Below, one piece after another: positions 57,301-60,300 of a DNA stretch of 64,000 nucleotides. Location of the stretch: the NCBI GenBank assembly GCA_947467145.1, contig CANIGJ010000002.1, positions 13,423 to 77,422 of the forward strand. Direction: 5' to 3'. The stretch's first letter is position 1. Each line of letters starts with the position of its first letter. Position numbers: made by a program. Source of the stretch: Rhodospirillaceae bacterium. GTDB taxonomy: Bacteria > Pseudomonadota > Alphaproteobacteria > Rhodospirillales > UBA2165.

Positions 57301-60300
57301 GACAATCGATCCTTGAGCCTGCGGCTCAGCGCGCCTGAAAAGTTTTCCAGCACAACCACAAACGATAGGTAATAGAAAAGCCGGCCGACGGACCGCGCCG
57401 TGGTTCCGAAATAACGCGTTACGGACGCGAGCGCGATTCGACGGTGACTGCGGCGAAGCTCCTCATACGTTGTTCCGCCCCCGCCAGGAAGCGCGGCTGG
57501 CTCGCGGCTTGCCTGAAATAGGCCGCTAACGTTCATTCGGTCGTTTTCCCAGACGCCCAGCCCGGTAGCTGGTTTGCCATGTACTTCGAGTGCAAGCGTG
57601 GCAAATCCAGCGCGCGCCATAATCTTCTTCAAGCCGTTCGGCGAGTACATGATGAAATGCGTCGGATCGCTCAACGGGCTTGCCAGCAAATTGGGAATCT
57701 CCAGATAGACCAGACCATCGGGTTCCAGGACATTACTTTTCAGGTGTTCGAGAAAACGAAGCGGTTCGCGCAAATGTTCGAAGACATGCACGAGAACAGC
57801 ATATTTCGTTTTATGAGCAAAGCTGTCCGAATAAATGTCGACCGTCGGCTTCGCCTCGTCGATGCCGAGCGCCGCTTTGGCGAAGGCAATACCTTCGACA
57901 TTGTAATCGGTTGCGATGGTCTGGCAGTTCCAGGCCTTGCGTGCGGCATAGAGGAACATGCCCTGGTAGGCGCCGAAATCCACAATCCAGTCGGTACTTT
58001 GCGGGAGAATCTCAGGGCGGGCTTTCGCGTAAGAGGTCACCAGATCGTAAAACGTTTGGAACCGCTTGAAGCTAACGCCGCTCAACGGAATGGAAATCGG
58101 TACGTCGATTTCTCTATCATGAAGCTGTACGGCATAGGAGCTTCGCCGATAGGCCGTATTGTAATGAGCCTTCAGCGCGGCCTCTTCGATCTGCGGATCG
58201 ATGAAGGCAATGCCGCAAGATTCGCACAGATGCGTATCGTAACGATGAAGGCCGGGATTGCTCGACACCGTAGGCATAACCAATGAATCGAATCCAATTT
58301 TGCGGGTTCGGCTGCTCGCGCAAACTGGACAGATGGATATCTTCAACGGCGAGGGCTCTCAATCGTTCGCTTCGCCATGACTTGCGTGGACGGCTCCGAC
58401 ATTGGATCCGCCGGCAGCGTACTTTTCAGCCATGAATTCAATTCGTCGATTCCGTTCAATATGGGAACTGAACCGCCTAGATCCGTTCGCCCGACAAGAC
58501 TGCTAAGAGGATCGTAGAAGGCAGACGGTACTCCAAGCGATTCGGCGACGTAGGCCGTGGATGTGAAGGGAGCCGAAACTACGCAAGCGGCGTTCACAAT
58601 GATACGATGCGGCGAAACCGTTGAGGGCAGAACGATGATCTGGCCGCCAACAGAAAGCCGGCGCAGATAGGTCTGGTATGGGCCATGTATAATTTTATCC
58701 GCCTTCGGTTTTTGTTTGAGTGCAACATGTGCATTCAAATGTGCGGCGGCTGTCACCAAATCGTCCACGAAGCGCAGCGATGATTTAGTATAATATGGGT
58801 TTGGATAACCCATATCGGCAAGCCGTGCCTGCCGAATTGGCGCCACATCGAAAACGGCGATCGTCCGTTCCGGCAATGAAATTTCTATTGTCGGGTCGTC
58901 AATATAACCGATCGCACCCATGTTTATGATTTGCGCATCCACGTGACCAGTCTGACGCAAGAATCTCGCCTGGGCTTCGTCCCAAACCGCATAAATGGGC
59001 CAGTTCATGCTGCGCAGGCCGGTGTTTATTATGTATTTGCCCGGCTTGCCCGTCGTCGCGACAAAATTCGTCGAAATAAACGCGAGTATGATGCGGGCGC
59101 CGCGCGCCTCGGCGCTGAATGTCCATAATGGCCGTATGAGCAAATTGGCGCTGGTAAAGATATAACTTTCTGCGGTGTTGCCGTGCACGCGTACCATACG
59201 GCTTACGTAATCATGGACTACCCGCTCGTCCTGCAGGATTGCACGCCACCACTCGCCGATCATCATACGAAACAAATCGACGAGCACGGCTCGGAGCGCG
59301 AACCCCGTAAAAGCGAGCTTCGCGCGCATGTCTGGCAAGCGCGGAAAACCAAGCTTCGAGAATTTGGTGTCGGTCCGGCTTTCCATGGGAGCAACGGACG
59401 AGACGCTCCAGATCTCGTTGTCGCGGCCGCTCAGAACGGGCGATCGCAGGAATGTCGACAGGAAATTCCAATTGCGCGGACCCGACTCACCCGCAGCCAT
59501 TTTCGGATTGGGAATGAAGATAACGCTATAATTTTTATTGGGTGAATGAACGGCATCGCGCCATGCCCAACCGATCATTTTGGCTGTCCGCATCGCCCCA
59601 GCTGCCCACATGCGTGCGAGCCGGCATACCCATATGATGCGGCTCGGCCAAGTGCTGATGGGTACGCCGAATTGAGCCAAACGGATTCGCCATGTTCTCG
59701 GGAGGGCAACCCTTGCGGAAGTTGGCCGCCCTGAAAGCATCAAATTGACATTCGGGAAAATGCTTTCTTGCAGCCCAAATACGCAAAGCCGTTGCACGAT
59801 ATTGCGTTCAATAACCTTAGCCCCGAGCCCAGGGACGATCTGCTCAAGTTTGCCAGTCGGGATGCCGAGCGGCGTGTCCTCGATCTGGTTGCCGATGGCG
59901 GTCATTTGGAAGGGATCATCGCTCTTCATGACCTTCATCCAAGCCCGCAACCGGGCCCGCACGCGACGTCTACCAATTCGCGCCGCAACATTTTTGCATC
60001 CGATCATGCAGCGAGTTCGGTTGCCATGCGCCGGAAAGAAGTGGATTTACCGATCAATTCGTCATAGGTGCCGCTTGCTGTTATCTGCCCGTTCTCGACA
60101 AGAAATAGGCATTCGCACGCCTTCACCGTGCTCAGCCGATGCGCGATAAAGATCATCGTCCGATCGGCATCGATCTGCGCCAAAGCGTCGGTGATGCCCC
60201 GCTCGGTGACGGTATCGATCGAGGCCGTCGCCTCGTCGAAGACCAGGACATCCGGATCGTTGTAAAGCGCCCGCGCGATCCCGATCCGTTGGCGTTCACC

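Follow-up and report, generated by a model that had tools for sequence, protein, structure and literature searches.

The DNA considered here, referred to throughout as the window, is a stretch of 64,000 nucleotides on contig CANIGJ010000002.1 of a Rhodospirillaceae bacterium (assembly GCA_947467145.1), the genes of which were annotated with Pfam and NCBIfam. Towards its end, on the minus strand at 58343..60007, lies the gene for a 554-residue PFTS-motif protein, a member of family TIGR04417/PF27878 that is predicted to be an enzyme with the GT-B fold, one of the folds of glycosyltransferases (GTs). The open reading frame (ORF) described in the initial annotation was verified, its C-terminal block VVSAPFTSTAYVAESLGVPSAFYDP included. 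The gene belongs to a minus-strand operon whose 5′ part encodes a cytidine monophosphate (CMP)-sugar synthetase, a methyltransferase, an uncharacterised 245-residue protein, an ATP-binding cassette (ABC) exporter, and the PFTS protein. These are followed by a further methyltransferase, a 2-oxoglutarate (2OG)-oxygenase-like protein, KdsA, a CBS-pair protein, a radical S-adenosylmethionine (SAM)/SPASM protein, the uncharacterised protein U500, and a GT2 enzyme. Beyond the GT2 gene lie a Wzy_C protein on the opposite strand and then a GT-C enzyme of the PMT_2 type.

The PFTS gene overlaps both of its neighbours by four bases. Upstream, the stop codon of the ABC exporter gene and the PFTS start codon share the sequence ATGA (60004..60007, minus strand), as initially annotated; downstream, where a second ATGA had been claimed, the junction between the PFTS stop codon and the methyltransferase start is instead TTGA (58343..58346, minus strand), because the methyltransferase begins with TTG. 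The 245-residue gene overlaps the ABC gene in the same manner (61791..61794), and the operon is therefore tightly packed. Four-base overlaps are frequent in operons, and those on either side of the PFTS gene thus indicate an operon and, probably, translational coupling, but nothing more specific. Public gene calls give shorter products—528 amino acids from M27 for the PFTS protein and 333 amino acids from M24 for the methyltransferase—with short gaps and no overlaps. From sequence comparison, the long forms are better supported. Most homologues share, in frame, the Arg-rich N terminus of the PFTS protein (...RRR..LRAW), and the locus of the closest homologue (L003; loci and proteins are designated here by L- and P-numbers) encodes it in open frame ahead of the start that is annotated there. 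The N-terminal CPxC of the methyltransferase, which pairs with a downstream CxxC and is conserved among homologues as part of a zinc ribbon, requires the TTG start.

The CMP-sugar synthetase (63250..63960, minus strand; 236 amino acids) is a PseF/NeuA-like protein of the CTP_transf_3 family (PF02348, 6.5e-23); against the PseF model TIGR03584 it scores 159 bits, under the cutoff of 205.7. In the contig copy (L001), a second CTP_transf_3 gene, a formyltransferase, a deacetylase, and more methyltransferases are found just past the end of the window. The ABC exporter (60004..61794, minus strand; 596 amino acids) is a fused transmembrane and nucleotide-binding domain protein of the PglK/MsbA type, with Pfam matches to ABC_membrane and ABC_tran; its best NCBIfam models are PglK (343 bits) and MsbA (277 bits), both below cutoff, and it is proposed to serve as the flippase for a lipid-linked product. 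KdsA (55500..56384, minus strand; 294 amino acids), a 3-deoxy-octulosonic acid (Kdo)-8-phosphate synthase, exceeds the cutoffs of NF003543 (338.5 bits versus 242) and TIGR01362 (322.9 bits versus 314), and supplies the locus with its ulosonic acid. The methyltransferase directly downstream of the PFTS gene (57276..58346, minus strand; 356 amino acids) is a zinc-ribbon class I enzyme (Methyltransf_23, 1e-12), homologues of which are present in other PFTS loci.

Against TIGR04417 ('polysaccharide biosynthesis PFTS motif protein'), the window protein reaches 118 bits, above the cutoff of 100 (E = 5.4e-34), with the alignment limited to residues 244–528, equivalent to profile positions 226–522. 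The newer Pfam name, PF27878 (PFTS_polysacc), derives from a precomputed match on the identical public protein P0001; the local copy of Pfam gave no match for the 554-residue protein. A word-indexed homologue search recovered six relatives only, even with 6- and 150-sequence profiles, whereas an exhaustive profile search of 1.84 billion cluster representatives recovered 2,367 clusters (counted at 50% identity) with E ≤ 1e-3, 882 of them reaching E ≤ 1e-30. Family members are mostly full-length proteins of 510–570 amino acids, and a profile built from the window protein together with its relatives aligns with hundreds of these over positions ~2–505, such that the homology is full-length. The window protein shares 22%–30% identity with most members and is a divergent addition to a family that is established but uncharacterised. 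According to the initial annotation, the family takes its name from the motif alone and no activity has been demonstrated for it; consistent with this, a search of the available literature under all family names found no paper.

PDB sequence searches with the single protein and with the family profile (E ≤ 10) yielded no related chain, Pfam searches at E ≤ 10 with 91 members gave random single matches and no consistent family, and tblastn against plasmids and phages found no match. A related-locus search with a five-sequence alignment returned one locus from a reference genome and 11, mostly short, from metagenomes. In two cases (L024:11847-12095 and L016:2833-3423) a full-length PFTS gene is followed directly by a short second ORF with similarity to the PFTS family; these ORFs may be the remnants of tandem duplicates or frameshifted copies.

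Conservation within the family is unevenly distributed. In an alignment of 150 sequences, W336, K431, and K433 are invariant, and at least 90% conservation is seen for Q72, P103, W106, R292, P293, W295, N314, F386, and D387, as well as for position 434 (arginine in the family), S478, P480, T482, S483, D499, and P500. The N-domain residues Q72, P103, and W106 are all present in the window protein. The name-giving motif or a close variant of it was recognised in 150 of the 153 family proteins, with 147 of the 153 having the form P[FYM][TS][ST] at this position; P480 and S483 are kept without exception or in at least 99% of sequences, and T482 in 90%. Thirty-seven of the 45 positions conserved at 85% or more fall within residues 276–535, whilst residues 1–275 are variable, a division that fits a donor common to the family and acceptors that vary. 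Residues 276–367 (58907..59182, minus strand) form the conserved core of the N-terminal Rossmann-like domain, with 18 of their 92 positions conserved at this level compared with eight of 275 in residues 1–275; the core comprises Y282, F284, R292-P-L-W-T296, N314, the invariant W336, V341-W342, and G364.

An AlphaFold2 model of the PFTS protein, built from the 150-sequence alignment, has a mean predicted local distance difference test score (pLDDT) of 92.7 and a predicted template modelling score (pTM) of 0.91. It consists of a helical N-terminal region (~1–150), a beta/alpha N-domain, and a compact C-terminal Rossmann-like domain (~368–535). In a Foldseek comparison of the full model with the PDB, 85 matches were obtained at E ≤ 1e-3, and all 50 of the 50 matches listed are GT-B enzymes (probability 1.00; E from 3e-6 to 2e-4). 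At ~10% identity and TM-scores of 0.3–0.47 these matches are weak and favour no particular GT family: they include GT1 UDP-glycosyltransferases and antibiotic glycosyltransferases, GT4 MshA, GT5 glycogen synthase, GT30 WaaA, and UDP-GlcNAc 2-epimerase, with the CMP-Kdo-dependent WaaA (2xci) at rank 10 (E = 1.5e-5). The protein is accordingly predicted to have a GT-B fold. The C-terminal domain (residues 368–535; 58403..58906, minus strand) was also modelled alone, which takes out the effects of domain orientation. This model (pLDDT 92.8) again matches the nucleotide-binding domains of GT-B enzymes of many families and does not distinguish between donor classes; all of its matches are weak (E ≥ 1.4e-4; TMq ≤ 0.61), and they include KpsC (6mgb, rank 12, E = 3e-3) and TagF-like capsule polymerases solved with CMP.

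Two short motifs stand out within the C-terminal domain. The first, K431-Q-K433-P-K435 (58703..58717, minus strand), was delimited by invariance and the model and lies at the end of strand 2 (E427–431); the family consensus is K-x-K-R. The second, P480-F-T-S483 (58559..58570, minus strand), falls between strand 4 (E475–478) and a helix (H483–490), and is placed by hhalign in register with the G-S-T loop of U500, a protein that carries a His-Pro (HP) motif. On the basis of their secondary-structure positions and of this alignment, the K-x-K(-R) segment and the P-F-T-S loop may bind the nucleotide phosphate, and K-x-K is proposed as the phosphate-binding motif in place of HP. At the other end of the protein, residues 2–27 (59927..60004, minus strand) form a basic helix (predicted H2–27, pLDDT 86–94). 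The first 30 residues contain ten lysines and arginines against one acidic residue, and among the homologues that have the N-terminal extension, 89% retain a net charge of +4 or more. No hydrophobic segment of membrane-spanning length is present in the PFTS protein, and for the helix a role in contacting the membrane or pyrophosphate is proposed.

Twelve independent loci with usable flanks, selected solely by the amount of available sequence, were annotated from precomputed Pfam matches, from hidden Markov models built from those genes, and from Pfam directly. In this small sample (n = 12, without a background control), a CTP_transf_3 gene lies within 10 kb in nine loci, NeuB or KdsA is present in ten, and at least one of these is present in 11; PFTS loci thus do not commonly lack a CMP-sugar synthetase, in keeping with what the initial annotation anticipated. 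On two short contigs, too, the PFTS gene has NeuB or CTP_transf_3 as a neighbour. The loci range from 29% to 68% GC. In L011, L013, and the P0125 locus, the PFTS gene directly follows a cassette of NeuB, CTP_transf_3, and a PseH-like GNAT protein, and in the distant L022 (14774-16061) a pair consisting of KdsA and a CBS-only protein of ~140 amino acids, like that at 55103..56384 of the window, occurs together with NeuB. Known families of ulosonic-acid transferases (Maf, Capsule_synth, Glyphos_transf, and the GT52/GT80 type) were found in none of the annotated loci, and the PFTS gene is the only GT-fold gene seen in L003, L008, L011, L013, and the P0125 locus. Wzx lies directly downstream of the PFTS gene in L009 and the P0125 locus, and ABC exporters homologous to that of the window occur in L023 and L025.

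Many PFTS loci (L008, L009, L011, L024, and the P0125 locus) carry two CTP_transf_3 genes, and there a further module recurs, consisting of an HpcH/HpaI aldolase, a 2-hydroxyacid dehydrogenase, a HAD hydrolase, an FkbM methyltransferase, and a KdsB-like cytidylyltransferase. This module may represent a second, aldolase-derived pathway to a CMP-activated 3-deoxy-ulosonic acid.

The best-supported explanation, slightly more likely than not, is that the PFTS protein works at the membrane periphery as a GT-B transferase, joining a CMP-activated ulosonic acid to a lipid-linked glycan that is subsequently exported. The enzyme would be soluble, or peripheral to the membrane, and would act at the cytoplasmic face, with its conserved basic N-terminal helix as the tether. 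Its C-terminal Rossmann domain would bind a CMP-activated 2-ulosonic acid, the identity of which is suggested by gene context: a Kdo-type octulosonic acid from the adjacent KdsA, activated by a CTP_transf_3 enzyme, in the window locus, and a nonulosonic acid (NulO) of the pseudaminic/legionaminic (Pse/Leg) type in most other loci. K431-x-K433 (K-x-K-R in the family) and the P-F-T-S loop at the N terminus of its helix would hold the phosphate, replacing the HP and S-S/T motifs that known CMP-sugar GT-B enzymes have. The acceptor would be bound by the variable N-terminal 275 residues together with the conserved core of the N-domain, and would most likely be a lipid-linked glycan on the inner side of the membrane, of either the undecaprenyl-diphosphate or the lipid A-core type. 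The product would then be flipped by the translationally coupled PglK/MsbA-like exporter or, in other loci, by Wzx.

The initial annotation had noted a resemblance of the C-terminal block to KpsC/KpsS-like and other GT-B transferases and, from the position of the gene, had proposed a polymerising or priming transferase for the ulosonic-acid donor. The GT-B fold, which the structure prediction bears out with all top PDB matches, and the locus association both hold; a specific likeness to KpsC is not supported, nor is the exclusive claim of the PFTS protein to the role, and a polymerising or priming function is unsupported, the evidence speaking neither for nor against it.

Several observations weigh against the assignment of the PFTS protein as a CMP-ulosonic acid transferase. 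Literature searches being empty, activity has been shown for no member of the family. The best full-length structural matches are GT1, GT4, and GT5 enzymes that use UDP- or TDP-sugars, CMP-sugar enzymes not being singled out, and the top match of the C-terminal domain is a UDP-GlcNAc 2-epimerase (4nes, E = 1.4e-4). Neither HP nor D/E-D/E-G is among the columns conserved at 85% or more in the 150-sequence alignment. The association between genes comes from the small and uncontrolled set of loci described above, of which L010 has neither a CMP-sugar synthetase nor an ulosonic-acid synthase within the available 15 kb, and L003 has NeuB and no CTP_transf_3 within 10 kb. The lipid-linked acceptor is without direct support, since no initiating phosphoglycosyl transferase was found between 30 and 64 kb of the window. 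The window locus also encodes the HP-motif, GT-B-like U500, a GT2, and a GT-C. Lastly, the window protein lacks three near-invariant residues, having T185 for tryptophan, I311 for tyrosine, and P434 for arginine, where W185, Y311, and R434 are carried by 94%–95% of the family; K435 stands next to P434. The closest relative, P0002, also lacks R434, with a serine there followed by an arginine. Together these sequences point to a subclade in which the basic residue is displaced, perhaps in connection with the different, Kdo-type context.

Foremost amongst the alternatives, and unlikely without being negligible, is that the PFTS protein is a GT-B enzyme of the same glycan pathway with an ordinary nucleoside diphosphate (NDP)-sugar donor, which either builds the acceptor for the ulosonic acid or glycosylates the ulosonic residue, the true CMP-ulosonic acid transferase being U500 or its TIGR04326-like relatives. 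The UDP/TDP-sugar enzymes at the head of the structural matches favour this reading, and the HP motif of CMP-sugar GT-B enzymes is found in U500 and not in the PFTS protein. U500 (52570..54090, minus strand) is an uncharacterised protein of 506 amino acids with R-x-HP and G-S-T motifs and weak matches to DUF6716, TIGR04326, and TIGR04396; its conserved motifs are R-x-HP, Y-x-G-S-[ST], and DPL. U500-like genes occur in five or six of the 12 PFTS loci, amongst them L009 (18694-20205), L010 (6552-8036), and L022 (1946-3421), with weaker examples in L024 and L025, and the radical SAM/SPASM, U500, and GT2 genes form a triad conserved in the window and L010. On account of its R-x-HP and GST motifs and its recurrence in PFTS loci, U500 therefore competes for the role of ulosonic-acid transferase, and the PFTS protein, initially regarded as the only candidate, is better described as one of two in the window locus, U500 being a rival or second candidate suggested by sequence. 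About half of the loci, however, have no U500-like gene or other recognisable GT, yet complete NulO cassettes abut the PFTS gene in them; nor is so close an association with NeuB and CTP_transf_3, across loci of 29% to 68% GC, what one would expect of an enzyme that uses an ordinary donor. Homology between the PFTS protein and U500 was considered and rejected: BLASTP was not significant and hhalign gave a probability of 1.3% (E = 0.04), though a loop–helix–strand segment is in register.

The GT-B fold also covers epimerases and hydrolases. A PFTS protein acting on a nucleotide-sugar intermediate as a PseG/NeuC/LegG-like hydrolase or a 2-epimerase, and not as a transferase, is very improbable, even though the UDP-GlcNAc 2-epimerases provide the top match of the C-terminal domain (4nes), a further one with a TMq of 0.61 (4neq), and an entry in the full-length list, and even though the PFTS gene sits inside biosynthetic cassettes. 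In five or more of the loci the PFTS gene is already accompanied by a gene for a PseG-like (Glyco_tran_28_C) or Epimerase_2 enzyme, and a role as a replacement for PseG or NeuC is mostly rejected because of this co-occurrence. In the window the ulosonic acid comes via KdsA, which needs no such step, and a transferase close to the membrane better accounts for the size of 554 amino acids, the variable N-terminal 275 residues, the conserved basic helix, and the flippase encoded next door.

Slimmer still are the prospects of a TagF/TagB-like phosphotransferase, which would draw on a CDP-activated donor to attach a polyol-phosphate or sugar-phosphate: TagF-like capsule polymerases (8qoy, 8a0m, and 8a0c) are among the C-domain matches, and the C-terminal 'S-x-PFTS...P-S-x-YYDP' recalls 'DYSS...P-x-x-x-Y-x-x-D' of TagF, but the structural matches are weak and not top-ranked, none of the 91 members matches Glyphos_transf even at E ≤ 10, and genes for CDP-glycerol or CDP-ribitol synthetases occur in no annotated locus. 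That the sole genetically supported NulO transferases of Tannerella are TagB-like (PMC5420450) also counts in its favour.

The remaining features of the locus concern the wider island. The 2OG-Fe(II) oxygenase-like protein (56450..57286, minus strand; 278 amino acids) matches PF13640 below cutoff (4.5e-5), and its gene overlaps that of the methyltransferase at 57276..57286 if the longest ORFs are taken; several public calls start later. The CBS-pair protein (55103..55528, minus strand; 141 amino acids) resembles the C terminus of KpsF/KdsD without the SIS domain. From ~34 kb to the end of the window, GC content falls from ~64% to 55%–59%, as surface-glycan islands typically show; this one covers at least 30 kb (~34000..64000). 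Among its further products are a NodU-like carbamoyltransferase, a GHMP kinase, a NUDIX protein, epimerases/dehydratases, and a protein of the alkaline-phosphatase superfamily, whilst island proteins without any family match include those at 34983..36890, 46812..48326, and 61791..62528.

For the window alone, the analysis improves the annotation to that of a predicted GT-B enzyme of a Kdo-type surface-glycan island, encoded by a gene coupled to that of an exporter. For the family, the broader proposal—that PFTS proteins are a new and widespread GT family for CMP-ulosonic acids, with a phosphate-binding site of K-x-K-R and P-F-T-S in place of HP—falls somewhat short of an even chance. If it is true, the PFTS proteins would take the place of the NulO transferase that is 'missing' from many bacteria of sea and soil and would found a new CAZy GT family, with Pse/Leg-type nonulosonic acids as donors in most bacteria and a Kdo-type sugar here. 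Little is known of the transferases for bacterial sialic-acid-like sugars and for Kdo outside LPS, a state of knowledge that has been called 'scarce' (PMC5420450). GT99, GT107, GT118, and GT140 were recognised only by structure or biochemistry, their sequences being isolated, and each newly characterised enzyme founded a CAZy family (PMC12887879). As ulosonic-acid transferases are so often isolated in sequence (PMC12887879), a further family of this kind is plausible. With ~2,400 clusters within NulO/Kdo cassettes, a confident GT-B model, and no likeness to characterised families, the PFTS proteins constitute a testable candidate for the missing step, and such transferases are wanted for glycoengineering and for studies of surface-glycan diversity.

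Set against its own family, the window protein resembles TIGR04417/PF27878 members in its score above cutoff, the PFTS motif, the K-x-K motif, its place in the 510–570-residue size class, and its polysaccharide-locus context; it departs from the typical member in its association with KdsA instead of NeuB, and with an ABC exporter instead of Wzx.

Amongst characterised enzymes, the sialyltransferases of GT38, GT52, and GT80 and the TagB-like Pse/Leg transferases of Tannerella share with the proposed PFTS enzyme a CMP-nonulosonic donor, a GT-B fold, and a position beside a NulO cassette. D/E-D/E-G and HP motifs define bacterial GT-B sialyltransferases (Freiberger 2007, as cited in PMC5420450); the PFTS proteins differ in having the invariant K-x-K and P-F-T-S instead, and show no sequence similarity to them. 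Membership of GT38, GT52, or GT80 was rejected, as these motifs are not conserved across 150 sequences and no PDB sialyltransferase appears in either list of the top 50 structural matches. Membership of the TagF-like group was likewise rejected, from the absence of Glyphos_transf matches in the 91 members and of CDP-polyol supply genes in the annotated loci.

KpsC/KpsS (GT107), WbbB (GT99), KpsS1 (GT118), and KrkA (GT140) are retaining beta-Kdo or Pse transferases with a modified GT-B fold. Points in common with the PFTS protein are a GT-B-derived fold, CMP-ulosonic acid donors (proposed in the case of PFTS), and the weak match of the KpsC C-domain; structures of these four families are, however, absent from the top 50 matches of the full-length PFTS model. 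Their N-domains are reduced and displaced (PMC12887879), whereas in the PFTS model this domain has its full size and additional helices. By sequence and motif, membership of GT107 or GT99 was rejected, since none of the 91 members matches Capsule_synth or any GT family in Pfam (E ≤ 10) and there is no conserved His-Pro.

WaaA (GT30), by comparison, is a GT-B enzyme that is peripheral to the membrane and transfers a CMP-activated octulosonic acid onto a lipid-linked acceptor. It differs from the PFTS protein in sequence and detail (~10% identity and TM-scores of 0.29/0.42 for 2xci), and the PFTS protein is ~200 residues longer, with a helical N-terminal extension. Membership of GT30 itself was rejected: neither the PDB sequence searches (single protein or profile, E ≤ 10) nor Pfam gave a match, and the likeness is confined to the level of the fold. 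In function, WaaA is the closest counterpart of the mechanism proposed here, and it provides the working model for how the PFTS protein would act.

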